DNA of 11,091 nt from Candidatus Eiseniibacteriota bacterium (GTDB lineage: Bacteria; Eisenbacteria; RBG-16-71-46), in the NCBI GenBank assembly GCA_031364845.1, contig JANLWX010000004.1:1-11091 (forward strand). The letters are read 5' to 3'. Under the pieces are notes generated by a model. That model was not told where the DNA came from, made no database searches, and was given only the letters and a program-made list of their open reading frames with translations. This document shows, in pieces, positions 1 through 11,091 of the stretch (its first letter is position 1; every line of letters begins with the position of its first letter). Both the position numbers and the translations under genes were made by a program.

Positions 1-96
1 GCCTTCCTCCAAGACGAGCCGGACGGCTCCCGCCCTGAACTCCTCACTGAACACACGCCGCGAGCGGCGACCACCGTTGTTGGGCATGCTGGACAT
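1..96 (-). CDS. IS3-family transposase OrfA (HTH_Tnp_1-like), N-terminal 32 aa, truncated by window edge
   Basis: Hand translation from ATG at 96: MSSMPNNGGRRSRRVFSEEFRAGAVRLVLEEG. This matches the RRxFSxEFKxxAVxLV start typical of IS3-family OrfA. Not in the ORF track because it runs off the window. Confidence 0.85.
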   Translation of the reverse strand, partial: MSSMPNNGGRRSRRVFSEEFRAGAVRLVLEEG

Positions 97-116
97 CGTA
101 TCCCCCTTTGGGAAGA

Positions 117-141
117 TGTCCACGAAATCGGGGCAAGCTCA
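117..141 (-). repeat. Left terminal inverted repeat (IRL) of the IS3-family element
   Basis: TGAGCTTGCCCCGATTTCGTGGACA. The partner IRR is outside the window, so the exact IR length cannot be determined. Confidence 0.7.
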
Positions 142-366
142 TCTTTTATTCCGCCGCGCGTGACGCAATTGCTCGACTCATAGACACTCCGGAACTGGGC
201 GTTTCGCGAGATGTCGGCACAGAGCAGTTGAAAGGGCTTCGAATGTGGCCCATTCCAGAGTTTCCGCGTCACCTGATTTTCTACCTACCCCTCTAAGGAA
301 GGCGTCGAAATCGTTCGCGTGCTCCACTCCGCCAGGGACATTCCTCAAATTTTTGGAGATCGCTAG
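142..366 (+). pseudogene. RelE/ParE-family type II toxin remnant (5' end cut off by IS; internal +1 frameshift)
   Basis: One frame gives FYSAARDAIARLIDTPELGVSRDVGTEQLKGLRMWPIPEFPRHLIFYLP and then stops at 294-296. The +1 frame from 292 continues SKEGVEIVRVLHSARDIPQIFGDR* (TAG 364-366). Joined, these give the ParE C-terminal signature (LxxxPxxG...LR.....HLIFY....VEIVRVLHxARD). The shift falls at the CCCC run 288-291. Confidence 0.85.
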
Positions 367-388
367 CGCGATATGCCTCAAGTTCAAT

Positions 389-427
389 GGAGCCAAACTT
401 CCCCGGGGGGGCTTGCGGCTCCCTTTT
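389..427 (+). terminator. Possible intrinsic terminator of the toxin gene
   Basis: GGAGCC (389-394) pairs with GGCTCC (417-422), with an inner CTTCC/GGGGG stem using G-U pairs, followed by CTTTT. Imperfect stem and short U tract. Confidence 0.3.
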
Positions 428-437
428 GAAAATCCCC

Positions 438-466
438 TTGAAGTCCGCTTAGCCTCGCCGTAACGT
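438..466 (+). promoter_or_regulatory. Candidate sigma70-type promoter for the small-peptide / TPR-activator operon
   Basis: TTGAAG (438-443) - 17 nt - TAACGT (461-466), preceded by an A/T-rich patch TTTTGAAAAT. Confidence 0.5.
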
Positions 467-560
467 CGGGTCAGTTCCGCTGACCGTTCCTCCTTGACCC
501 GGGATGCCGCATGGTCGTTTCCCCTCGCCCCATCCGGAACGTCGTTCACTGCCCGCTCAT

Positions 561-580
561 AGGCATGCCATTGCATGCCT
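561..580. promoter_or_regulatory. Perfect dyad AGGCATGC-N4-GCATGCCT (operator or RNA hairpin)
   Basis: 8-bp perfect inverted repeat with a 4-nt spacer, about 85 nt upstream of the small-peptide start. The dyad is seen directly; its function is inferred. Confidence 0.4.
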
Positions 581-665
581 TCGAGGGGGCTTTGTCTTTT
601 CCGGCGGCTCGCCCCCGAAGCAGAGCTGCTGTCGCACGGGGAAGGATCTCCGAAGGAGCGCTGAG

Positions 666-953
666 ATGATCAAGCCGAGCCGGCCTGTTCTGTGGCTGGC
701 CATCGTATTCGCCGCAGGCATCATGCTTGTGCCTCAAAGGGGAGCGGCGAGGACGAATCCGAACAGGTTCTGTGAGCCGATCAATGAGCCGAGGCTGGGC
801 GAGCCGGATGATCCGGGTTCGGGGCGCTCGTTGCGACTGCCCGCAATTCAGTTCATGCCAGGCGACTGGTGGTCGTACGCGTTGACAACCTATTTGGCAT
901 CCAACTTTGCTGGTGAACGTTCCGCCAGAGCCTCGCAGAGAGGGCAAAAATGA
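666..953 (+). CDS. Small exported protein / putative signalling propeptide, 95 aa
   Basis: Strong RBS AAGGAG 7 nt before ATG 666, so the ORF-track start at 504 is an unlikely extension. The sequence has a basic n-region MIKPSR, hydrophobic h-region VLWLAIVFAAGIMLV and a probable cleavage near GAA|R. These are followed by a Pro/acidic segment EPINEPRLGEPDDP and an aromatic segment DWWSYALTTYLASNF. The stop overlaps the next start (ATGA, 950-953). Confidence 0.75.
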   Translation: MIKPSRPVLWLAIVFAAGIMLVPQRGAARTNPNRFCEPINEPRLGEPDDPGSGRSLRLPAIQFMPGDWWSYALTTYLASNFAGERSARASQRGQK

Positions 954-3421
954 TCGACGTGCTTGAGCGCGCCCGGGCACTCAGGTCACTCCTGGAGTCG
1001 ACGGCCCTTTCCGAAGCAGATGTGTCATTAGTTGAAGCAACGATTGTCTGTTGCGAAAGGCTCATTGAAACCGGCAATTCAACCTGCGCGGTTGACCTCA
1101 TTGATGTTTGGATCCGGGACAAACAGGAATTCCAAGAGTCGCCAGGTTTGGGAGTCGTTCTCGCGCGAGCTTTGCTTGCAGCAGAGCAATATGAGCGGTG
1201 TTCTGCCCTGGCAACCGCCCTGCTCATCGATGTTGACCTTGCGCCGAGACTCACCAGAACTGATGCATTTCTCCTGCGAATCTACGAGGCCGCTTGCCTT
1301 CGTTTGTCCAGTCGTGCCGACGAAGCTGCCTCAAGGTTGACATCAATACGATCGGAATTGCTCAGTCTCCCCGAATCAAGGGCATTGGGTTGGTGCTCTT
1401 TTCAGCTAGGGGCAGCGCACCTGATGCGGGGGGATCGCAGCCAGGCCAAAGACCTGATGATCGAGGCGATTGTTTCGGCGAAGAGAACTGGCGACCAATA
1501 CTTGGAGGCGAGCGCGCTGCACGCGTTGGCAATCGGAGAGCGGTTGCTCTGCCGATGGTCGTCGGCCTTAGAGTCCGCTGAGCGCGCAATGTACATCTGC
1601 GAGGCATTGCAATCGCGTCTTCCCGCGGCTCACGCGCTTCGATCCACGTCACTGATTGCGTGGCGACGAGGGCACCTTGAGGCTGCCACCAGTCGTGTCG
1701 AGCGCTACGTTGATGCCTTGTCTCAGATCGGCCATCAGAACCAAGTTTGGGGCTGGTACGGCGCTCTCGTGAAGGGAATGATCCTCCTCCACCAAGGTAA
1801 GTACTCGGACGCAGGCTCCCTTCTCGGCTCGACCCCACGTTGGCAAGCACCCAACGAACACTCCCGTGCCTCACTCCTCACCACCGAATTCCTCGGCGAC
1901 GTCCACCTCGAGCAAGGCAACGCCGCGCCCGCTCTCGCGCTTTACGACGCCGTGTTCCCGAAGGCGCTCGCGCTCGTACCTAAGGGCGACATCGTGGCCG
2001 AGCTTCGTCGTCGTCGCGCCGAGTGCTATCTGCTCCTGAACCGCGCCAAAGACGCCTACGACGAAGCGAAGATCGGACTCGAGCACTGTCGCGACCTGGG
2101 CGACCGCTACGAAGAAGCGGCCACCTATCGCATTCTGGCGCTGAGTGCCGCGGCCCTCGGCAATCCCAACGAGGCCAAGCGCTGGTTCGATCAGGGCTTC
2201 GCCTACTACGACGACATCGAGACGCCCTACGAATGGGGCAAGCTGTGGATGGCGTACGGCGACTGGCTGCGCGGCTCGCATGCGGGCGAGTACGCCGACA
2301 TGGCGGCCGGGCTCGAGGCGTATCAGGCGGCTCGCGATCACTTCGATCGAATGGGCGCTCAGGGCAAGCTCGCCGAAGCAGAAGCGCGCATCGCGACGGC
2401 CAGTGGTCGTCCAACGAGGCCGGCTGCGAAAGTCGCTCGCGAGAAAGCCACGCCGCGTCGGCGCCCGCGTGGATCATCCGAACTCGAGCGCAAGTCGCAG
2501 TGGGCCTTCGACACATTCGGCATGCTGACGGCGAACAAGGCGCTCCTTCGAATGCTGGATGACGTGTCGAAGTTGTCTAAGACATCGTCGCCGCTGCTCG
2601 TTCTCGGCGAATCCGGAACGGGCAAGGAGTTGGTGGCGACGGCTGTACATAATCTGTCGGGGCGCACCGGAACGTATCTGCCGATCAATTGCAGCTCGCT
2701 GCCTCGCGAAGTCATCGAGAGCGAGCTGTTCGGTCACGCGCAGGGCGCTTTCACGGGTGCGGCGCGCGACAAGGCGGGGTTGCTCGAAGTCTGTGCTGGC
2801 GGTACGGCGTTCCTCGATGAGATCGGCGAGATGTCGATCGAGTTGCAGTCACGGTTGCTGAGGTTCCTCGAGACGGGTGAGATGCGCCGCGTCGGCGCCA
2901 CCCGCAATCTGCGCATCGACACGCGCATCGTCGCGGCGACTAATCGCGGAGCCGCCGAACTCGAAGCGGGCGATGGGTTCCGTCAGGATCTCTACTATCG
3001 TCTCGCGCATGCGGTCGTGGTCCTTCCGCCGCTGCGGCAGCGTGGCGACGACATCGAGCTTCTGGCGCATCACTTCCTCGAATCGGCGTGCGTCGAGCAA
3101 GGCAAGGATGTGGCGCTGAGTGAGGAAGCGGTCGATGCGCTGCGTGCCCACCGCTGGCCGGGGAACGTGCGTGAACTGAAGGCGGTGATGAAGCGGGTCG
3201 TCATCCTCTCGCCGGGCGACCATGTCGTCACGGTGTCCGACCTCGCGCTCAAGCCGGCGACCGCACCTTCGACGCTGCTCGAAGAACTCGCGCACAGCGA
3301 GCGCGAGAAGATCGCCGCGATGCTCAAGCACGTCGCGGGTTCTCGCACCGAGGCCGCCCGGGCGCTCGGTATTCCGCGCACGACACTGCTCAACAAGATC
3401 CGCCGCTACGGATTGAGCTGA
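950..3421 (+). CDS. TPR-domain sigma54-dependent transcriptional activator (bEBP; TPR array - AAA+ - Fis-type HTH), 823 aa
   Basis: Intact motifs: Walker A GESGTGKE, ESELFGH, GAFTGA (2744-2761), Walker B FLDEIGE, RIVAATNR, FRQDLYYRL, WPGNVREL, and C-terminal HTH SRTEAARALGIPRTTLLNKIRRYGL. The N-terminal ~480 aa are Ala/Leu-rich TPR-like helical repeats (e.g. LGAAHLMRGDRSQAKDLMIEA, LGDVHLEQGNAAPALALYDAV). No receiver domain is recognisable. Confidence 0.93.
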   Translation: MIDVLERARALRSLLESTALSEADVSLVEATIVCCERLIETGNSTCAVDLIDVWIRDKQEFQESPGLGVVLARALLAAEQYERCSALATALLIDVDLAPRLTRTDAFLLRIYEAACLRLSSRADEAASRLTSIRSELLSLPESRALGWCSFQLGAAHLMRGDRSQAKDLMIEAIVSAKRTGDQYLEASALHALAIGERLLCRWSSALESAERAMYICEALQSRLPAAHALRSTSLIAWRRGHLEAATSRVERYVDALSQIGHQNQVWGWYGALVKGMILLHQGKYSDAGSLLGSTPRWQAPNEHSRASLLTTEFLGDVHLEQGNAAPALALYDAVFPKALALVPKGDIVAELRRRRAECYLLLNRAKDAYDEAKIGLEHCRDLGDRYEEAATYRILALSAAALGNPNEAKRWFDQGFAYYDDIETPYEWGKLWMAYGDWLRGSHAGEYADMAAGLEAYQAARDHFDRMGAQGKLAEAEARIATASGRPTRPAAKVAREKATPRRRPRGSSELERKSQWAFDTFGMLTANKALLRMLDDVSKLSKTSSPLLVLGESGTGKELVATAVHNLSGRTGTYLPINCSSLPREVIESELFGHAQGAFTGAARDKAGLLEVCAGGTAFLDEIGEMSIELQSRLLRFLETGEMRRVGATRNLRIDTRIVAATNRGAAELEAGDGFRQDLYYRLAHAVVVLPPLRQRGDDIELLAHHFLESACVEQGKDVALSEEAVDALRAHRWPGNVRELKAVMKRVVILSPGDHVVTVSDLALKPATAPSTLLEELAHSEREKIAAMLKHVAGSRTEAARALGIPRTTLLNKIRRYGLS

Positions 3422-3440
3422 CGCTCGAGTCGCGCGGTCC

Positions 3441-3489
3441 TGCCTCGGTCCCCGGTGACGCCATGACGTCACGAAGCAAGGACCGAGCA
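3441..3489 (+). promoter_or_regulatory. Intergenic stem-loop overlapping the MFS ribosome-binding site
   Basis: Outer arms CTCGGTCC (3444-3451) / GGACCGAG (3480-3487); inner arms GTGACG (3455-3460) / CGTCAC (3467-3472). The putative SD AAGGA (3478-3482) overlaps the 3' arm. Confidence 0.4.
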
Positions 3490-3491
3490 TC

Positions 3492-4829
3492 GTGATTCGC
3501 TTCCTCCGCCCGCTTCCCGACGCGCCGCTGCTCACCGGCGAGCGCCAAGCCGCGGCCTATCGCGCAGGCCGCATGGTCATGCTGATCGGCGTGACCGCGA
3601 CCTACTCCTGCTATTACCTCACGCGCGCCGTGCTCGACGTCGCGAAGAAGCCGATGATCGGCGCCGGCGTCTTCGATGCCGACCAGCTCGGCACGATCGG
3701 CGCGATGATGACGGCGGCGTACGCCGTCGGGAAGCTCGTCAACGGCTGGATCGCCGATCGCGTGAACGTCGCGCGTTTCCTGCCGCTCGGGTTGTTCCTG
3801 TCGGCGATGGTGAACCTCGCGATGGGGTCGAATACCGGATTCGCCGTCGCGTGCACGCTGTGGCTGCTGAACGGCTATGTCCAGGGCGCCGGCGCCGGCG
3901 CCAGCGTGCGCGGCCTGACGCAGTGGTTCTCGGGCCGCGAGTATGGGCGTGTGTATGGATTCTGGAGCGGCGCTCACTCTGCGGGCGAGCTGCTCACGCT
4001 CGTCGGCACCGCGGCGCTTATCTCGCACGCCGGCTGGCGCGCCGGCTTCATTGGTCCCGGCATCGCGTGCGCGATCGTGGCGCTCGTGGCGGCGGTTGTT
4101 CTAAAAGACCGCCCGCGCGCCTACGGGCTGCCCGAGGTCAACGCGTGGAAGGGCGAGCCGCACGAGGAGGAGGGAGGTTCGACGCTCGGGGCCCAGCTCG
4201 AAGTCCTGAGGAATCCCGCCGTGTGGATCTGTGCGCTCGCCAGTGCGTTCATGTTTGTCACACGCTTCGGCATCAAGAGCTGGGGCGTCTACTACCTGCA
4301 GGAGACCCACGGGTTCACGCTGGTCGGGGCCAGTCTCATGATCGGTATCAACTCGGTCTCGGGCTTCGCGGGCTCGCTGGCGTACGGCTGGGTCAGCGAC
4401 GTGTGGTTCAAAGGCCGCCGCCCGCCCGCGACCCTGCTGTTCGGAGTGGTCGAGATTCTCGCCCTCGTGCTGATGTTCTACGGCCCGCGTTCGACACCGC
4501 TGTTGATCGTGTCCCTGTTCGTCTACGGATTCGCGCTGTCCGGAATCCTTGCGGTGCTCGGAGGCTTGTTCGCGGTGGATCTCTCGTCCAGGCGCGCCAC
4601 CGGCATGGCGATGGGGTTCATCGGATTCATCAGCTACATCGGCGCGACGATCCAGGAGAAGGTCTCGGGCGTGCTGATCAAGTCGAACACCACGACGCTG
4701 CCGGATGGAACCAAACACGTCGACTTCTCATTGCCCGTGGCGATCTGGGTAATTTCCAGCGTCGTGTCGATGCTGCTTGCGGCGACGCTGTGGCGGGTGC
4801 GAACGCGCTCGAGCCGGGTCGGCGCGTGA
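3492..4829 (+). CDS. MFS transporter, organophosphate:Pi antiporter family (GlpT/UhpT/UhpC-like), 445 aa
   Basis: About 12 hydrophobic segments. OPA-like motifs YYLTR, AYAVGKLVNGWIADR, QWFSGREYG, KDRPRAYGLP, RFGIKSWG and GWVSD. GTG start with AAGGA upstream. Confidence 0.88.
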   Translation: MIRFLRPLPDAPLLTGERQAAAYRAGRMVMLIGVTATYSCYYLTRAVLDVAKKPMIGAGVFDADQLGTIGAMMTAAYAVGKLVNGWIADRVNVARFLPLGLFLSAMVNLAMGSNTGFAVACTLWLLNGYVQGAGAGASVRGLTQWFSGREYGRVYGFWSGAHSAGELLTLVGTAALISHAGWRAGFIGPGIACAIVALVAAVVLKDRPRAYGLPEVNAWKGEPHEEEGGSTLGAQLEVLRNPAVWICALASAFMFVTRFGIKSWGVYYLQETHGFTLVGASLMIGINSVSGFAGSLAYGWVSDVWFKGRRPPATLLFGVVEILALVLMFYGPRSTPLLIVSLFVYGFALSGILAVLGGLFAVDLSSRRATGMAMGFIGFISYIGATIQEKVSGVLIKSNTTTLPDGTKHVDFSLPVAIWVISSVVSMLLAATLWRVRTRSSRVGA

Positions 4830-4951
4830 TGGATCGGCAGGTCGCAAGCCGGCGCCGGGAGTATACTTCGTCCAATTTGTCGCTCCGGACGGGACACAGG
4901 TTCGAAGGATCGCCGTCGCGTTATAGCTCTATGGAGATCGGAGACTCACAC

Positions 4952-7819
4952 ATGCTGCCGCTCGAGCTTCCTCCGCGGATCGTGCGTTCGTCCGGTTCTG
5001 TCATCGCCGCACTGGCGTCGGTGCTCATGTGCCTCGCGCTCGCGCCGGCCCGCGCCGGAGTTCCTTCCGACGGCACGTGGGCATCCATCGGCCCGCCGGC
5101 GGTCCGCCACAGCGCGAGCATCATCTACGACCCCGGGCTCGATGGCATCATTCTGTTCGGGGGCGCCTCGCGGCGGGGCGATTGCTGGACGTTGACCGTG
5201 GGCGCGAGTCCCACATGGACCGAGATTCACACCACCGGCGCTCGTCCGACGCCCCGCGACGGACATACTTCCGTCTACGATCCGGTCCGCGATCGCATGA
5301 TCGTGTTCGGCGGCGACGATGGTGAAGGAGTCGATTACGAAAACACCGTGAACGCGCTGCCGCTCGATGGGTCAGAGGCTTGGAGTCAGCTCACCACCAC
5401 CGGCACAGCACCACTCGGACGCACCGATCACACGATGGTGTACGACTCGATTCGCGATCGCGTCGTCGTGTTCGGCGGCGTCGCCGACTTCCAGCGATTC
5501 GAGGATGTCCGCGCGCTCTCGCTGTCGGGGACGCCCGCGTGGAGCGAGGTTCTGCCTCCGGGCTCGGGTCCTTCAGCGCGCTACGGTCACGTCGCCATTT
5601 TCGATCCGGTGGGCGACCGCATGATCGTCTTTGGCGGATCCGACCTGCTGACGCGCAACGATGTCTGGGCGCTCAACTTCTCGGGCGTTCCCGCGTGGAC
5701 CCAGTTGACGACGCTCGGCGCTTCGCCGCCGCTCACGACCGAAGCGGTGGCGGTCTACGATCCGACACCCGGACGCATGATCGTGTTCGGCGGTGATGAT
5801 GGCGAATCGAATCTGTCGAACGACGCATGGTCGCTGAGCCTCGACAGCCTGCGGTGGACGAAGCTCGAGCCTGCCGGCACGCGTCCGACTTCGCGATTCC
5901 GGCATGCCGCGACTTACGACCCGACGCGCGATCGTATGCTCGTATTCGGCGGCACCGATCCCAACCGCGAGAACGACGTGTGGGCGCTCAGCCTGACCGA
6001 CACGCCGGCGTGGACCGAGCTTCCGGATCTCGGCACGCCGTGGGATCGCGGCATGCATTCGGGGGTCTACGATCCTCTCAACCAGCGCATGGTGCTGTTC
6101 GGGGGCACCGATGGAACCGTGCGCAACAGCACGCGCATTCTGCCGCTAACGGGAACGCCGCGCTGGTCGACGCTCAGTGTGCTGAGGGATTCACTGCCCG
6201 CGCCGCGCGTTCGTTACAGCGCCATCCACGATCCGGTGCGCGAGCGGATGATCATCTTCGGTGGCTGGGACGAGCTTCCGGGCTCGAACTTCAAGGACGA
6301 CACCTGGGCGCTCTCACTCTTCGGTACGCCCACGTGGACGCCGATCGATCCTCCCGGTCAGCGGCCGGCGACCCGCATGGAGCACGCGGCGATCTACGAC
6401 TCACGTCGTGATCGCATGATCGTGATCGGCGGATACCTCGATCGCCACGATGTCTGGGCACTGCCGTTGTCGGGGACGCCGGTATGGACGCCGCCATGGA
6501 CGCCGCTCAATCCCACGGGCGCGTTTCCTTACGAGCGCGGCATTGCGGCGGTCTACGATCCGGTCGGGGATCGCGCGATCGTCTTCAACGCGATACCCAA
6601 CGACTGGGACGGGCCGCTGAATACGTGGGAGTTGACGCTCGGCGACAACCCGCAATGGAATCCGCTGCCGACGAGCGGGCTTTCGCATCGTGGGAGTTGG
6701 GGGATGTCGGCGATCTACGATCCGATCCGTCATCGCGTGGTGCTGATGGACGGAGACTACAGTTCCGGCCGGCCCGCTGCGACGACCGAGTTGTCACTGT
6801 CGACGCTCGCATGGCGCGCCTTCGACCTGGTCGCCCCACGCCCCGTCCGTCGCGCGATGCATGCCGCCATCTATGATTCGCATCGCGATCGCATGCTGAT
6901 CACGGGCCAGTTCAGCGCCGTACCCAATTCCGAGAGCAACACGTGGTCCCTGACGTGGGGCGATCCGGTGAAGCCGTCGGTCGATTGCGCGACGCCGTCT
7001 GGCGAGCAGCAGGACACGTTGAGCCTGCCCTATGTGCTCGCGCATCCGTTGAGCGGCACGCGTGCCGTCGCGTGGACGTTGAGCGCCGATCGCGCGTGGC
7101 CGGGATTCCCGCTGCGCGGGATCGAGAACGTCGAAGGCGGCACGCCCGAAACGTTGACGGTGAGCGTTCCGCTGCCCGACACGGCGGCGGCGGGCAAGGT
7201 CCAACTCCATATGTCGGTCGAGTTGAGCGGTGCGACCGGCAACGCGAACGTGTGCGATCACGAAGTCACCTTCGCAGTCACGCCGACGCTTGCGGCGGTC
7301 GTCACCGCTGAAGCGAACGATCATGGGATCCGGCTTCGGTGGCATGTGAGCGGCGAAGGTTCGGTCGTCGCGCAGCGGCGTACGCTCACGACTCCCTGGA
7401 CAGCGTTCCGCAACATCGTGCCCGATGGCGAAGGCTATGCCGTCGTCGAAGACCTCGATGTCGAGGCCGGCGCGCAATACGGCTATCGGCTGACCTGGAA
7501 CTCCGGCGGCCGCGAAGTCGTTGCCGGCGAAGTCTGGGTTGAGATGCCGGTCTTATCACAGCTCGCGCTGGCGGGACTCACACCGAATCCCTCAACGGGT
7601 CCGGTCGCAGTCGCGTTCTCGATTCCGTCGGCGGGCACGGCTCGCATCGACGTGCTCGACATCGCCGGACGATCGGTGGGCGTCGGCCGGCGACTCGATC
7701 TGGCCGCGGGCAATCACGTCGTGGCATTCGGAGAGCGGCGCCTTGCCCCGGGTGTCTATCTCGTGCGGCTCGAGTTCGGAGGTCGGACTCTGCACCGGCG
7801 CGCGGTGATCTTGAGGTAA
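4952..7819 (+). CDS. Secreted Kelch-repeat (double beta-propeller) protein with Ig/FnIII-like linkers and C-terminal T9SS/FlgD-Ig-like sorting domain, 955 aa
   Basis: ATG 4952 with GGAGA RBS (alternative ATG 4931). Signal peptide ending ...LALAPARA|G. Twelve YDPxxDRMxxFGG-type repeats. C-terminus PNPSTGPVAVAFSIP...IDVLDIAGRSV...LAPGVYLVRL...RRAVILR (about 7562-7816). Confidence 0.88.
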   Translation: MLPLELPPRIVRSSGSVIAALASVLMCLALAPARAGVPSDGTWASIGPPAVRHSASIIYDPGLDGIILFGGASRRGDCWTLTVGASPTWTEIHTTGARPTPRDGHTSVYDPVRDRMIVFGGDDGEGVDYENTVNALPLDGSEAWSQLTTTGTAPLGRTDHTMVYDSIRDRVVVFGGVADFQRFEDVRALSLSGTPAWSEVLPPGSGPSARYGHVAIFDPVGDRMIVFGGSDLLTRNDVWALNFSGVPAWTQLTTLGASPPLTTEAVAVYDPTPGRMIVFGGDDGESNLSNDAWSLSLDSLRWTKLEPAGTRPTSRFRHAATYDPTRDRMLVFGGTDPNRENDVWALSLTDTPAWTELPDLGTPWDRGMHSGVYDPLNQRMVLFGGTDGTVRNSTRILPLTGTPRWSTLSVLRDSLPAPRVRYSAIHDPVRERMIIFGGWDELPGSNFKDDTWALSLFGTPTWTPIDPPGQRPATRMEHAAIYDSRRDRMIVIGGYLDRHDVWALPLSGTPVWTPPWTPLNPTGAFPYERGIAAVYDPVGDRAIVFNAIPNDWDGPLNTWELTLGDNPQWNPLPTSGLSHRGSWGMSAIYDPIRHRVVLMDGDYSSGRPAATTELSLSTLAWRAFDLVAPRPVRRAMHAAIYDSHRDRMLITGQFSAVPNSESNTWSLTWGDPVKPSVDCATPSGEQQDTLSLPYVLAHPLSGTRAVAWTLSADRAWPGFPLRGIENVEGGTPETLTVSVPLPDTAAAGKVQLHMSVELSGATGNANVCDHEVTFAVTPTLAAVVTAEANDHGIRLRWHVSGEGSVVAQRRTLTTPWTAFRNIVPDGEGYAVVEDLDVEAGAQYGYRLTWNSGGREVVAGEVWVEMPVLSQLALAGLTPNPSTGPVAVAFSIPSAGTARIDVLDIAGRSVGVGRRLDLAAGNHVVAFGERRLAPGVYLVRLEFGGRTLHRRAVILR
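5105..6960 (+). repeat. 12 tandem Kelch-like repeats (~50-57 aa each)
   Basis: Counted cores: YDPGLDG, YDPVRDR, YDSIRDR, FDPVGDR, YDPTPGR, YDPTRDR, YDPLNQR, HDPVRER, YDSRRDR, YDPVGDR, YDPIRHR, YDSHRDR. The GG dipeptide is lost in the last three. Confidence 0.85.
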
Positions 7820-7828
7820 GCCGCTCCC

Positions 7829-8263
7829 ATGCCGACCCTCCAGTGCCAGCACTGCGGCGCCCCGGTGACGTTCGCCGAGCCGATCCCGCGCGATGCCGAA
7901 TGCGAATCGTGCCGGCGTGATCTGCGCGCGTGCCGCAATTGCCGTCACTACGACGTCGCCTACAACAACGCGTGCACCGAGCCGATGGCAGACCCGGTCG
8001 AGGACAAGTCGCGCCGGAACTTCTGCGAGTTCTTCTACTTCAATCGCGCGGCGTTCGTCGCGGCGAAATCGAACGAAGTTCGTGCGGCCAATGCGCGCGA
8101 CAAACTCGACGCCCTGTTCGGCGGCACGTCCAAGCCCGCGGACACACGAACCGCCCGTGAGAAGCTCGATGGCTTGTTCGGCGGAGGCGAGAAGCCGCGC
8201 GACAAAGCGGCGGACGCGCGCAAAGGGCTCGACGGGTTGTTCAAGAAGAAGGACGAGGCATAA
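7829..8263 (+). CDS. Cys-rich putative metal (Zn)-binding hypothetical protein, 144 aa
   Basis: CQHC, CESC and CRNC(xH) plus two further Cys (ACTEP, NFCEFF). Starts 9 nt after the upstream stop with GAGG upstream. High-GC3 codon usage. Confidence 0.8.
   Translation: MPTLQCQHCGAPVTFAEPIPRDAECESCRRDLRACRNCRHYDVAYNNACTEPMADPVEDKSRRNFCEFFYFNRAAFVAAKSNEVRAANARDKLDALFGGTSKPADTRTAREKLDGLFGGGEKPRDKAADARKGLDGLFKKKDEA
8093..8248 (+). repeat. Three tandem copies of an ARxxLDxLF motif
   Basis: ARDKLDALFGG (8093), AREKLDGLFGG (8153) and ARKGLDGLFKK (8216), with periods of 60 and 63 nt. Confidence 0.8.
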
Positions 8264-8264
8264 C

Positions 8265-8303
8265 GCATCGGCGCGATCGTTCACGTCACGATCGCGCCGA
8301 TGC
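8265..8303. terminator. Strong hairpin between convergent genes (probable bidirectional terminator)
   Basis: Perfect 16-bp stem GCATCGGCGCGATCGT / ACGATCGCGCCGATGC with a 7-nt loop, immediately after stop 8263. U tracts are weak. Confidence 0.7.
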
Positions 8304-8335
8304 TTCATCGATTTTCGTTGCGTCGGGAGAGTCGG

Positions 8336-8737
8336 CTACTTCTTCTTTCCGCGCCGCCCGTCGGGTTCTCCGCCACCCAACTCGCTCGCCAGGATCCCCG
8401 GCAAGAGCCTGCGAATGTGCGAGCGGATCTCGTCGCGAATCGTATCGGCGATGTTCATCGCGCCGCCGACCGCCTTGCCGACAGCGGCTGCGGCGACCAC
8501 GGCCCGGCCACCTTTCTTTCCGCGCTTGCCGGCGGCGCCCTTCTTGCGCCACGAATAGTAAGTCACGGGCGTCACGCCGAAGCGCTCCTTGACCTTCGCG
8601 GCGGTGAGCCCTTCGCGCTCGGCGGTCTCGAGTATGTTCTGCCGCTCCGCATCGGAGTATCGCGTACGCGTTTTTCTCCCTCGGCCGGACGTTGTTGCTT
8701 TCCCAGCGCTCGCCTTCTTGGACTTGCGGGCTGCCAT
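8336..8737 (-). CDS. Small basic HTH DNA-binding protein (transposase-OrfA-like HTH, stand-alone), 133 aa
   Basis: GGAGGG RBS before ATG 8737. Core RTRYSDAERQNILETAEREGLTAAKVKERFGVTPVTYYSWRKK resembles an HTH_Tnp_1-type helix-turn-helix. K/R/A/G-rich flanks; hand count about 33 K+R vs about 12 D+E. Confidence 0.8.
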   Translation of the reverse strand: MAARKSKKASAGKATTSGRGRKTRTRYSDAERQNILETAEREGLTAAKVKERFGVTPVTYYSWRKKGAAGKRGKKGGRAVVAAAAVGKAVGGAMNIADTIRDEIRSHIRRLLPGILASELGGGEPDGRRGKKK

Positions 8738-8850
8738 TGCCGAACCCTCCATGAGGTGGTGACACGGCCTCGACGACCGGCCCCACGCTACGCCACTCGA
8801 AGTGGGGCGTCCACATCCTTCCCGCGTTCGGCAAACCGCCACCGTCCGCT

Positions 8851-8880
8851 TTGACGCAGCACCCGCCCGTAACCTACCTT
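8851..8880 (+). promoter_or_regulatory. Candidate sigma70 promoter of the yicC-gmk-rpoZ-coaBC operon
   Basis: TTGACG (8851-8856) - 18 nt - TACCTT (8875-8880) in the divergent intergenic region. Confidence 0.5.
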
Positions 8881-8984
8881 CGCCGGTTCCGACACCCGAT
8901 TTCGCGGTCTCCCGCCGCCTTCCTTCTTAAGGCAGCCGCAGGCCGCGTCGTGATTCATGGTCTGCACCGGAGGAGTCCGCCAGC

Positions 8985-9863
8985 ATGATCCGCAGCATGA
9001 CGGGGTTCGGTTCGGCCGAACTCGAGCGTGATGGCCAGCGTCTCACGGCCGAGATCCGGTCGGTCAACCACCGCTACTGCGACGTGTCGATGCGGGCCCC
9101 CAAGCTCGTGAGCGCCTTCGAGGACCAGATCCGCCAGTTGATCGGCGAGCGCTACTCGCGCGGCAAGTTCAACCTCACGATCACCTGGAGCGGAGCGGGG
9201 GACGAGGGCGAGGTGCTCAAGGTCAACGAGCCGGTCGCCGATCGCTATGTCGCGCTGCTCGAGCAACTGCGCAGCCGCTACAAGCTCGACAGCGGACTCG
9301 ACATGCGCACGCTTGCGCAACTTCCGGATGTGTTCGTGTGGGAGCACACGGCGTTGTCCGACGAGCAGACGTGGAGTCTGGTGAAGCTGGTCGTGACCCA
9401 GGCGTGCGAGAACATGGAGGCGATGAAGTCCCGCGAAGGGCGTTCGCTCGCCGATGATCTCGAACACCGTCTCACGATTCTGCGCACGCAACTTGATCTG
9501 GTCAGCGAGCGCGCGCCGTATCGCCCGCTCGAAGCGAAGGAGCGTCTGACCGCGCGCGTCAAAGCGCTGCTCGGAGACGTCGAGATGGATCCGATCCGCA
9601 TTGCGCAGGAAGTCGCGATGATGGTGGACCGGCTCGACTGCACCGAGGAGTGCGTGCGGCTCGCGGCCCACATCGACCAGTTCCGCTCGCTGATCGAAGG
9701 CACCGAACTCGCCGGGCGCAAGCTGAACTTCTTGCTGCAGGAGATGAATCGCGAGGGCAACACGATCGGTGCGAAGTCGAACGACGTGGCGATCACCCGC
9801 GCAGTGATCGTGATGAAGGAAGAGATCGAGCGCCTGCGCGAGCAGGTGCAGAATGTCGAGTGA
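8985..9863 (+). CDS. yicC: YicC/YloC-family endoribonuclease, 292 aa
   Basis: N-terminal SMTGFG, EIRSVNHRY, EECVRL, GRKLNFLLQEMNREGNTIGAK and C-terminal REQVQNVE. GGAGGAG RBS. Conserved position upstream of gmk. Confidence 0.96.
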   Translation: MIRSMTGFGSAELERDGQRLTAEIRSVNHRYCDVSMRAPKLVSAFEDQIRQLIGERYSRGKFNLTITWSGAGDEGEVLKVNEPVADRYVALLEQLRSRYKLDSGLDMRTLAQLPDVFVWEHTALSDEQTWSLVKLVVTQACENMEAMKSREGRSLADDLEHRLTILRTQLDLVSERAPYRPLEAKERLTARVKALLGDVEMDPIRIAQEVAMMVDRLDCTEECVRLAAHIDQFRSLIEGTELAGRKLNFLLQEMNREGNTIGAKSNDVAITRAVIVMKEEIERLREQVQNVE

Positions 9864-10530
9864 CATCATGCCGCCCGACGTGAATCCTCACGGGGCGGCC
9901 CGGGCCTACGATCCGAACGCGACGTTCCACTTCGAGCCGGGCGGGTTCCTGTTCGTGGTGTCGGGTCCTTCGGGCGCGGGCAAGGGCACGCTGGTCGAGC
10001 GGCTGGTGAAGATCCGGCCCGAATGTATCTTTTCGATCTCGTCCACGACGCGGCCGCGACGGCCGCACGAAACGCACGGGGTCGAATACGAGTTCGTGAG
10101 CCGCGAAGAATTCGAGCAGCGCCGCGCGCAGGGATTGTTTCTCGAGTCGGCCGAAGTGCACGGTCATCTCTACGGCACTCCGGCCGGGCCGGTCGACGAA
10201 GGCGTGCGCGCGGGCCGGGTGGTGGTGCTGGATGTCGATGTGCAGGGCGGAGCGAGCGTGCGCGCGGCGCGGCCGGATGCGGTGTCGGTGTTCATCTACC
10301 CGCCTTCGATCGATGCGCTGCGCGAGCGCTTGCGCGGCCGCAACACCGAAACACCGGAAGCGCTCGAGGTTCGCCTCGGGAACGCGCCGGGTGAACTCGA
10401 GCAGTATCGTGACTATCAGTACGTGGTGGTGAACGACGATCTCGATCATGCGGCCGAGCGGCTGGTCGCGATCGTCGATGCGGAGCGCGCGCGAGTGCGT
10501 CGGTTGCGCGCGCATCCCGGACGTCCCTGA
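9853..10530 (+). CDS. gmk: Guanylate kinase
   Basis: P-loop VSGPSGAGKGT, SISSTTRPRRPHE, EVHGHLYGT, LDVDVQG and YVVVNDDL. Start is ambiguous (9853 vs 9868). Confidence 0.96.
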   Translation: MSSDIMPPDVNPHGAARAYDPNATFHFEPGGFLFVVSGPSGAGKGTLVERLVKIRPECIFSISSTTRPRRPHETHGVEYEFVSREEFEQRRAQGLFLESAEVHGHLYGTPAGPVDEGVRAGRVVVLDVDVQGGASVRAARPDAVSVFIYPPSIDALRERLRGRNTETPEALEVRLGNAPGELEQYRDYQYVVVNDDLDHAAERLVAIVDAERARVRRLRAHPGRP

Positions 10531-10553
10531 ACACCGACGATGGAGTGTATGGA

Positions 10554-10754
10554 ATGACGAAGCTTGCATCCTTGATCACGCCTCCGGGTGACAGTAAGTA
10601 CGAATTGGCGGTCATCGCGGCCCGCGAAGCGCGCCGCCTCAACGAGTGGTCGCGTCGCACGGGCGAAACGCCGAAGGGCAAGGTCACCGCACTCGCCCTC
10701 GAGCGCACGATCCGCCACGAGGTGCCGTACGGCTACGACGAGAACGCGGAGTAG
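10554..10754 (+). CDS. rpoZ: RNA polymerase omega subunit, 66 aa
   Basis: SKYELAVIAAREARRL and KVTALALE motifs. Lies between gmk and coaBC. GGAG 8 nt before ATG 10554. Confidence 0.88.
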   Translation: MTKLASLITPPGDSKYELAVIAAREARRLNEWSRRTGETPKGKVTALALERTIRHEVPYGYDENAE

Positions 10755-10812
10755 CTCCCGCAAGGCGAAAGCCCGTCGCGGCGCGAGCGCCGGCGTCGAG
10801 AACGTCGCGCAT

Positions 10813-11091
10813 GTGAGCGCCGACGCCACGACTTCCGGCGCGCTCGCAGGCACGGTCGTCGTGGTCGGAGTGTCGGGCGGCATCGCGGCCTACAAGGCGT
10901 GCGAATTGGTGCGCTGGTTTCGCCAGCGTGACGCGCACGTCGTCGTGGTTATGACCGAGGCCGCGGCCGAGTTCGTGACACCGCTCACGTTCCAGGCGCT
11001 GTCGGGCAATCCGGTCGTCTCGCATCTGTGGGGCGATCAATCCCCGCGCTTCGATCTGCCGCCGCGCGCGCGCGCCAAGGTCCGCGGGCGC
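10813..11091 (+). CDS. coaBC: Phosphopantothenoylcysteine decarboxylase/synthase CoaBC, N-terminal flavoprotein part (partial)
   Basis: Hand translation from GTG 10813: ...VVVVGVSGGIAAYKACELVRWFRQRDAHVVVVMTEAAAEFVTPLTFQALSGNPV... The frame is open to the window end; the exact start is uncertain. Confidence 0.92.
   Translation, partial: MSADATTSGALAGTVVVVGVSGGIAAYKACELVRWFRQRDAHVVVVMTEAAAEFVTPLTFQALSGNPVVSHLWGDQSPRFDLPPRARAKVRGR

Follow-up and report, generated by a model that had tools for sequence, protein, structure and literature searches.

We analyzed an 11,091-nucleotide stretch of DNA from a Candidatus Eiseniibacteriota bacterium (GenBank assembly GCA_031364845.1, contig JANLWX010000004.1, positions 1 to 11,091 of the forward strand; hereafter the window). 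It carries a small gene for a putatively exported protein of 95 amino acids, overlapped by the gene of a sigma54-dependent activator whose sensor is an array of tetratricopeptide repeats (TPRs). The two genes likely encode a strain-specific peptide signal and its receptor. The pairing and overlap of the genes, a motif common to the small proteins, the intact AAA+ motifs of the activator and the joint exchange of the small protein's tail with the N-terminal half of the receptor were directly observed, as were, in two sister cassettes, a sigma54 promoter and the sequence of a conserved ORF-less RNA. The window's genome is denoted G000 (contigs C119, C85 and others), the window locus L001, and related loci carry further L-numbers.

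The small gene (666..953, forward strand) is preceded by the Shine-Dalgarno sequence AAGGAG (653..658, forward strand), which lies 7 nt 5' of its ATG and is conserved across leaders. Its stop codon shares the ATGA at 950-953 with the start of the activator gene (950..3421, forward strand; 823 amino acids), a 4-nt overlap that occurs in 44 of 76 loci. A domain scan of the activator detected TPR_12 (above cut-off) and TPR_MalT (below cut-off) at residues 147-420, Sigma54_activat at residues 527-688 (E 3.6e-55), AAA_lid and HTH_8, and gave no receiver, GAF, PAS or kinase match; the TPR part alone is about 490 amino acids long. Walker A (GESGTGKE), GAFTGA, Walker B (AFLDEI), ATNR, FRQDLYYRL and WPGNVREL are intact, so that the protein has the AAA+ core, Walker motifs, GAFTGA loop, arginine fingers, sensor II and helix-turn-helix (HTH) of a sigma54 enhancer-binding protein; the activation domain (GAFTGA at 2744-2761), lid and Fis-type HTH occupy 2528..3409 (forward strand). 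A preliminary description of the window had reported a small open reading frame (ORF) with a signal-peptide-like start, a strong ribosome-binding site and an ATGA overlap, which sequence and translation confirmed, and a TPR array as sole input module next to intact AAA+ motifs including GAFTGA, which the domain scan and motif reading confirmed. The apparently diderm nature of the host was borne out by seven Omp85 matches in the genome, which also contains rpoN.

The small protein begins with a basic N-region, a hydrophobic core (best 19-residue Kyte-Doolittle mean 1.75) and an Ala-rich end at residue 28, where the cleavage site was judged by eye, giving a predicted Sec signal peptide at 666-749. 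The N-termini of the family, judged from sequence patterns alone, have the same basic N-region and hydrophobic core (median 19-residue hydrophobicity 1.86). Among 76 small proteins of the window's clade a lipobox was found in two and a twin-arginine pattern in none, and Sec export is plausible. The count of AxA cleavage sites (74/76) was discarded as evidence because the pattern is too permissive. The signal-peptide-like start is followed by a Pro/Gly-rich acidic segment (median charge -3) ending in a G[DE]PD motif, and then by a variable basic and hydrophobic tail. In the window the motif is GEPD (residues 45-48; 798..809, forward strand). Its G and P are invariant in 37 clade members, and the alleles among the 76 are GDPD (49), GEPD (18) and variants (9); two motif-like copies are present in 17 of 149 family members. 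GEPD and GPPD alleles lack the first Asp-Pro bond, and autocleavage at Asp-Pro was therefore rejected as an essential step. An arrest peptide of the SecM kind was dismissed on reasoning, since the motif at about residue 45 is too near the signal peptide and far from the stop.

In clade members the tail comprises about 52 residues after the motif, with a median charge of +5 and a hydrophobic stretch. For the window's own tail the 19-residue hydrophobicity is 0.35, and a transmembrane-level value of 1.6 is reached by 19 of 76 clade tails and by 1 of 149 other family members. The tail would generally not be a transmembrane helix, which weakens the membrane-anchored partner given as an alternative in the preliminary description; its other alternative, an anti-activator, stays a rival and is weighed below. 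The amphipathic-helix moment of clade tails was not above that of shuffled sequences (37/76), and sister-clade tails end in a conserved helix. The small proteins of relatives are 83-130 amino acids long, many slightly more than 100, and the protein matched no Pfam, NCBIfam or PHROG family. Pooled dN/dS was 0.43-0.48 across the three parts of the ORF (8 pairs; a rough value, synonymous sites being near saturation), indicating purifying selection and hence a coding gene. Lack of conservation of this ORF, which the preliminary description had named as a finding that would speak against its proposal, was thus not observed.

The pairing of the two genes is real and phylum-wide. The small ORF, recognized by a hydrophobic N-terminus, a G[DE]P[DNSV] motif and an end within -35 to +20 nt of the receptor start, was present in 36 of 39 testable orthologous genome loci (55 after de-duplication, 16 of them with too little upstream DNA). 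In metagenomes, where loci were counted without de-duplication, 36 of 80 had enough upstream DNA; 30 of these bore the motif, four a variant (GDPG, GPPD twice, DGPD) and two none. Together, a motif-bearing small ORF lies 5' of 66 of 75 testable orthologues, or 70 counting variant motifs. It was also found at 18 of 18 testable distant paralogues (motifs GDPD, GDPT, GDPS and GDND), from 20 that were hand-picked from the matches listed, two of them without upstream DNA. In the window's genome it precedes all three TPR-type sigma54 activators and none of 18 other sigma54 activators, one of which had only 56 nt upstream. The motif occurs in 4 of 439 small signal-peptide-like ORFs of this genome, three of the four being cassette genes. 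The expectation that a small exported-type ORF consistently lies upstream of homologous activators was therefore upheld.

A search of 1.84 billion proteins with a profile built from 22 propeptides gave 258 matches, and 149 of the best 150 were under 240 amino acids, all 149 with a motif. Titled relatives were mostly Ca. Eisenbacteria; a few contigs under other names (e.g. L083) bear near-identical genes and are probably mis-binned. A TPR match was obtained in 150 of 151 genomes of the phylum, a tally that includes the unpublished G015 and in which weak matches may be other TPR proteins. Receptors of the window's type gave strong matches in 40 of the 60 genomes belonging to its family and in 0 of 91 others. 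Solo receptors without a small gene were found at L068, L074, L080, L194 and L204; in four of the five the promoter-like and leader elements described below run on to the receptor, the small gene being cleanly deleted. At L002/L058, L010/L073, L030/L047 and L008/L039 orthologous receptors are broken by stops, frameshifts or an insertion, with the small gene intact where visible, which reflects either assembly error or signal-blind alleles. Two activators of about 1700 amino acids with Ser/Thr kinase, NTPase, TPR and sigma54 domains, assigned by eye (G000:C34 and G000:C55), are without a motif-bearing small gene.

Near-identical strains exchange a block of about 1.1 kb that runs from the motif to about receptor codon 300. 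DNA identity is about 45-75% inside the block and 95-100%, or clearly higher, outside it in the pairs L181/L184, L003/L035, L146/L201 and L001/L133. L181 and L184, for instance, share 100% of their bases as far as the motif, drop to 48-68% identity over about 1.07 kb, and return to 95-100% for 1.5 kb; in L023/L198 a shorter block is swapped. In five of five swaps the 5' breakpoint fell within the small gene, either on the motif or a little way ahead of it, and protein pairs exist with 99-100% identity C-terminally and 39-61% in the N-half. In the window the polymorphic block (750..1840, forward strand), drawn from DNA identity profiles of strain pairs and low third-position GC, covers the mature part or tail of the small protein and receptor codons 1 to about 300. 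Mean third-position GC is 0.70 in the small gene, 0.65 in the receptor N-half and 0.83-0.85 beyond it (31 loci). L160 and L133, the closest relatives of the window, keep the signal peptide while their mature part has diverged. The allele-specific information is in the 40-60-residue basic, partly hydrophobic tail after the motif, not in a short C-terminal pentapeptide. Contigs from four DNA sequencing runs, compared with window positions 1-6000, yielded only short fragments from relatives, none of them bridging an allele swap; no RNA run appeared among the sequencing runs listed as matching. Contig breaks fall inside the N-half in 28 of 80 metagenome loci, a figure biased by the search pattern.

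The receptor is variable in the part that is proposed to read the tail. Mean pairwise identity is 0.26-0.44 over residues 1-320 and 0.67-0.77 over residues 321-440 (31 loci). The conserved C-terminal TPRs (residues 310-440; 1877..2269, forward strand) were delimited by the identity profile and by invariant residues, R306, A328, P344, D347 and G404 being invariant across receptor subfamilies. In 40 pairs with a signal-peptide identity of at least 0.6, which are not independent, identity over the 30 residues that follow the motif goes with identity in the receptor N-half (Spearman 0.60), not with that in the conserved TPRs (0.14). For the 16 residues preceding the motif the correlation with the N-half is weak (0.28). 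The covariation of peptide and TPRs that the preliminary description wished to see checked was found among these pairs with similar signal peptides, and partial correlations were near zero over 31 diverse loci (see below). In the sister clade (C119 type) no such swaps were seen, the minimum N-half identity among 118 close pairs being 0.65.

A predicted output of the system is seen in two sister cassettes. In the sister receptor types a TGGCAY-N5-TGC sigma54 site lies 210-400 nt after the stop in nine of nine examined RKTL/YPTL-type loci with downstream DNA, and also downstream of both paralogues in the window's genome and of two further copies; the chance expectation is about 0.002 per locus. 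Only such positionally conserved sites were used, because the -24/-12 pattern was not enriched genome-wide over its reversed control. In the C119 type two TGT(C/T)AC...GT(G/A)ACA palindromes lie 5' of the site, which is followed by a conserved, structured ORF-less RNA of about 500 nt with an invariant GCACCTCCATC loop and a terminal hairpin/terminator. For this RNA 81 pairs were predicted, 19 of them with double changes (6 sequences). It lies at G000:C119:6794-7230 (L106:4795-5230) and also in L036, L037 and L113-L116, and is a candidate for a new small RNA family, in which the GCACCTCCATC loop would be anti-Shine-Dalgarno-like. The C85 type has a second sigma54-driven ORF-less RNA (G000:C85:115084 onward, L107; also L117-L121) behind receptors of about 1030 amino acids, whose length suggests a GAF-like insert. 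This RNA starts with a GGAGG...CCTCC hairpin (GGAGGGGGGACCTCC), which might, speculatively, be of the CsrA-binding type. Neither RNA matched Rfam.

Among 11 other paralogues checked downstream, one of which had only 284 nt, a sigma54 site was present only at L088. Behind another paralogous receptor a sigma54 site is followed by the gene of a small lipoprotein with PTGGNELN repeated twice (L122:572-754), convergent with that of a TPR-like protein (L122:761-1921); these two are possibly a second peptide-TPR pair. An orphan sigma54 site at G000:C200:86460 (L124), followed by about 290 nt without an ORF that end in a terminator-like hairpin, was rejected as the target of the window's type, since 80 genomes of the family gave only chance-level matches of 24-72 nt.

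Taken together, we propose that the small gene encodes a pre-pro-peptide that would be exported by Sec and cleaved by signal peptidase, cut a second time at or near the G[DE]PD motif and released through the outer membrane. The product would return through an Opp-type transporter or an intramembrane-protease route, and its variable tail would be bound by the N-terminal TPRs of the activator, themselves just as variable, the tail and these repeats together conferring strain identity. The conserved C-terminal TPRs may hold the motif or relay the signal, and binding would switch sigma54 transcription, probably by activation rather than inhibition, with the AAA+ domain opening the promoter; in the window's own type this promoter would lie elsewhere in the genome. 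We regard this reading as a whole as moderately probable. The exported-peptide, TPR-sensing and sigma54 scheme of the preliminary description is partly supported in its genomic predictions, by the pairing, the purifying selection, the joint swaps, rpoN and six peptide-ABC binding proteins (SBP_bac_5) in the genome, which also encodes M50 proteases, RseP-type included. More tentatively, and with somewhat less than even confidence, the Eisenbacteria may possess a multi-channel peptide network of non-RRNPP TPR receptors wired to sigma54 and independent of RRNPP systems (the peptide-sensing TPR regulators compared below), in which conserved channels fire large regulatory RNAs, one of them with an invariant anti-Shine-Dalgarno loop, the window's type is a strain-specific kin channel whose signal tail and sensor half change hands as a 1.1-kb pherotype cassette, and signal-less alleles eavesdrop; it would amount to intracellular peptide quorum sensing in a diderm phylum.

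Several results weigh against the proposed peptide signalling. A tail of 40-60 residues is long for Opp uptake and a second cut site is not evident, and no dedicated protease or transporter gene was consistently linked in the neighbourhood clusters or in a Pfam scan of 40 neighbours. M16 peptidases do lie near several loci (a cluster of nine), but these peptidase genes go with the metK-ahcY region and are absent from the window. The dN/dS ratio is below 1 in every region, giving no positive selection on average, and partial correlations between peptide parts and receptor regions are near zero over all 31 diverse loci. In L157/L203 and L147/L157 tail DNA is 66-68% identical and receptor codons 1-200 are 84-90% identical, indicating that tails can drift without a receptor swap. 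The joint exchange itself could be hitchhiking, since neighbours within a block travel together whether or not their products bind. No RRNPP-named NCBIfam or PHROG model matched, nor was there a phage match. GAFTGA drifts in the window's clade (48 of 120 canonical, 43 GSFTGA, 8 GSYTGS), while the sister clade keeps the canonical form in 113 of 120, and an adjacent downstream sigma54 site was found in none of the 86 window-clade loci with 450 nt downstream. These last results suggest that the target of the window's type lies elsewhere or that some members act without sigma54.

The small protein may instead act within the cell that makes it, as an anti-activator or a monitor of the envelope or of export. 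Residing at the inner membrane, or building up in the cytoplasm if export by Sec falters, it would hold the TPR activator by its tail until stress or proteolysis releases it, for which PspA-PspF and regulated intramembrane proteolysis are analogies. Such a partner would need no transport across two membranes and would explain the 1:1 translational coupling, with its 4-nt overlap at 44 of 76 loci, and it fits the hydrophobic stretch followed by basic residues, the 19 of 76 tails at transmembrane level, the conserved terminal helix of sister-clade tails and the RseP-type proteases of the genome. However, most tails, that of the window included, are not transmembrane-like, the repeated replacement of alleles at fixed breakpoints is not accounted for by a housekeeping inhibitor, and solo receptors persist from which the small gene was cleanly deleted. 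We consider this explanation unlikely, with a minor but appreciable chance of being correct.

The joint swap of a conserved N-part, a junction motif, a polymorphic C-part and a cognate binder encoded directly downstream also recalls contact-dependent kin recognition or a polymorphic effector, in Rhs proteins the junction before the polymorphic tip being marked by DPxG. The small protein would then be displayed or delivered, and the receptor N-half would be an immunity-like binder reporting self or non-self; the cationic tails (median net charge +5) would suit this role. The tails, however, are short and have no recognizable domain, no delivery system is linked, the sister cassettes share the layout without the polymorphism, and the GEPD and GPPD variants are without the first Asp-Pro bond, so that we consider this explanation improbable. 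Mere linkage of co-transcribed neighbours that do not interact seems more improbable still. In that case the TPRs would respond to another input, such as a protein from a phage or a competitor, which would drive their diversification, with the tail carried along; the resemblance of the TPRs to AfsR, HaaT and LGN types rather than to RRNPP receptors, the existence of solo receptors and hitchhiking as an account of the joint swaps all agree with it. It leaves unexplained why a motif-bearing gene is found with each of the subfamilies examined throughout the phylum and with none of the other sigma54 activators, and why all five swaps have their 5' breakpoint within the small gene, no further 3' than the motif.

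The proposed peptide signal and receptor resemble the RRNPP/RRNPPA systems (Rap-Phr, NprR-NprX, PlcR-PapR, AimR-AimP, Rgg-SHP), in which, according to PMC10075063, a small Sec-type propeptide gene adjoins that of a cytoplasmic TPR receptor. The signature given there comprises a propeptide of 10-100 amino acids, Sec secretion, a receptor of 250-500 amino acids, TPRs and adjacent genes; by that account the window pair agrees in propeptide size (95 amino acids), TPRs and adjacency, with Sec export plausible, and differs in its receptor of 823 amino acids. The several paralogous pairs per genome and the solo receptors are further points of likeness. On the other hand, receptors here have 760-1050 amino acids, a C-terminal sigma54 AAA+/HTH output and a host among the diderm Ca. 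Eisenbacteria instead of the Firmicutes, and the small proteins have an internal shared motif and a long variable tail. RapH_N and RNPP_C gave no match in the window's genome; the RapH_N control was positive in B. subtilis, the RNPP_C control only in Bacteroides. AfsR/MalT/HaaT-type TPR arrays and LGN/GPSM2 TPRs were the profiles closest to the sensor part, with matches that are weak and fall far short of the curated cut-offs, and the ESM Atlas neighbours of the receptor are TPR proteins. LGN-type TPR superhelices bind extended peptides. No STAND NTPase or RiPP enzymes are linked here. Because the receptor length is off, no RRNPP model matches and the TPRs are closer to AfsR/HaaT/LGN, we do not file the system as an RRNPP member, although it likely works like one. 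The preliminary description had set the upstream position of the peptide gene apart from that of phr, papR and nprX; this point fell, since PMC9765709 places RRNPPA propeptides upstream or downstream of the receptor.

The single hypervariable block over a signal gene and the 5' part of its receptor recalls agr, whose hypervariable region is described in PMC3673130 as spanning 3' agrB, agrD and 5' agrC. The large regulatory RNA output of agr (RNAIII) parallels the RNAs of the sister cassettes. The membrane histidine kinase, cyclic thiolactone and linked AgrB processing enzyme of agr are not present here; neither AgrB nor a histidine kinase was found in the neighbourhood clusters or in the Pfam scan of 40 neighbours, and the receptor is without a kinase match. 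A signal-controlled regulator transcribing a non-coding RNA is likewise found in the LuxO-sigma54-Qrr system of Vibrio and in AimR-aimX. LuxO, which was among the AAA+ profile matches of the activator, is a phosphorylated response regulator that reads small-molecule sensors and drives Qrr RNAs through sigma54. In phage AimR-AimP-aimX a signal-controlled regulator drives transcription of a non-coding RNA, and AimR is not a sigma54 activator. The RNAs of the sister cassettes, in contrast to these, match no Rfam family. Among viral contigs the best 80 of 298 matches covered the AAA+ part only.

We found no description of the system in the titles and abstract openings searched. Peptide signals read by cytoplasmic TPR receptors have been described from Firmicutes and their mobile elements (PMC10075063, PMC9765709). 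If our reading is true, this peptide-TPR logic would extend to a whole phylum of double-membrane bacteria, there with a sigma54 ATPase as output, and the concrete question would arise of the peptide's route across two membranes and back. Pairs of the L181/L184 type, identical save for the swapped block, are natural matched and mismatched signal-receptor sets; with them, and with the sister-cassette promoter for a reporter, the claim is testable in E. coli without culturing the host. The cassettes also bring two undescribed RNA families and possibly an orthogonal signalling toolkit.

The 5' leader of the cassette has conserved elements of its own. A sigma70-type promoter-like element (TTGAAG, 17 nt, TAACGT; 438..466, forward strand) was recognized from TTGA and TA-n-n-n-T hexamers aligned in 18 leaders, and falls below the threshold of a consensus scan. 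It is followed by a C-rich element (TTCCCCTC...; 510..535, forward strand) in which the nucleotides are conserved but no reading frame is. A leader peptide starting with the ATG at 511 was discounted, since the frame of the upstream ATG/GTG relative to the small gene varies between loci. Between the C-rich element and the small gene lies a covarying hairpin with a T-rich tract, terminator- or attenuator-like (551..600, forward strand). In this hairpin 14 of 16 pairs have changes on both sides, none of 500 shuffles scored as high and slid controls were far lower; a terminator-like match was found at 577-590. The leader gave no Rfam match.

Downstream of the gene pair, positions 4955-7819 of the window encode a secreted double Kelch beta-propeller protein with a Por_Secre_tail-like C-terminus, and in relatives large secreted FlgD/T9SS-tail proteins often flank the cassette; these could be targets or just hotspot cargo. 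At 8336-8842 (reverse strand) a Lys/Arg-rich protein of 168 amino acids with an HTH_Tnp_1-like helix-turn-helix is encoded, perhaps a nucleoid-associated protein. The window continues at 8985-11040 with yicC-gmk-rpoZ, followed by coaBC in relatives. Many orthologous cassettes lie directly upstream of yicC with variable genes inserted between, and in L036, L037 and L041 a C119-type cassette stands a few kb upstream of a window-type cassette, which suggests an origin by tandem duplication. Near the start of the window, broken frames at 108-365, which had no Pfam match, resemble the C-terminal part of a ParE/RelE-type toxin-antitoxin gene, and the end of contig C111 carries an identical copy of bases 15-141.

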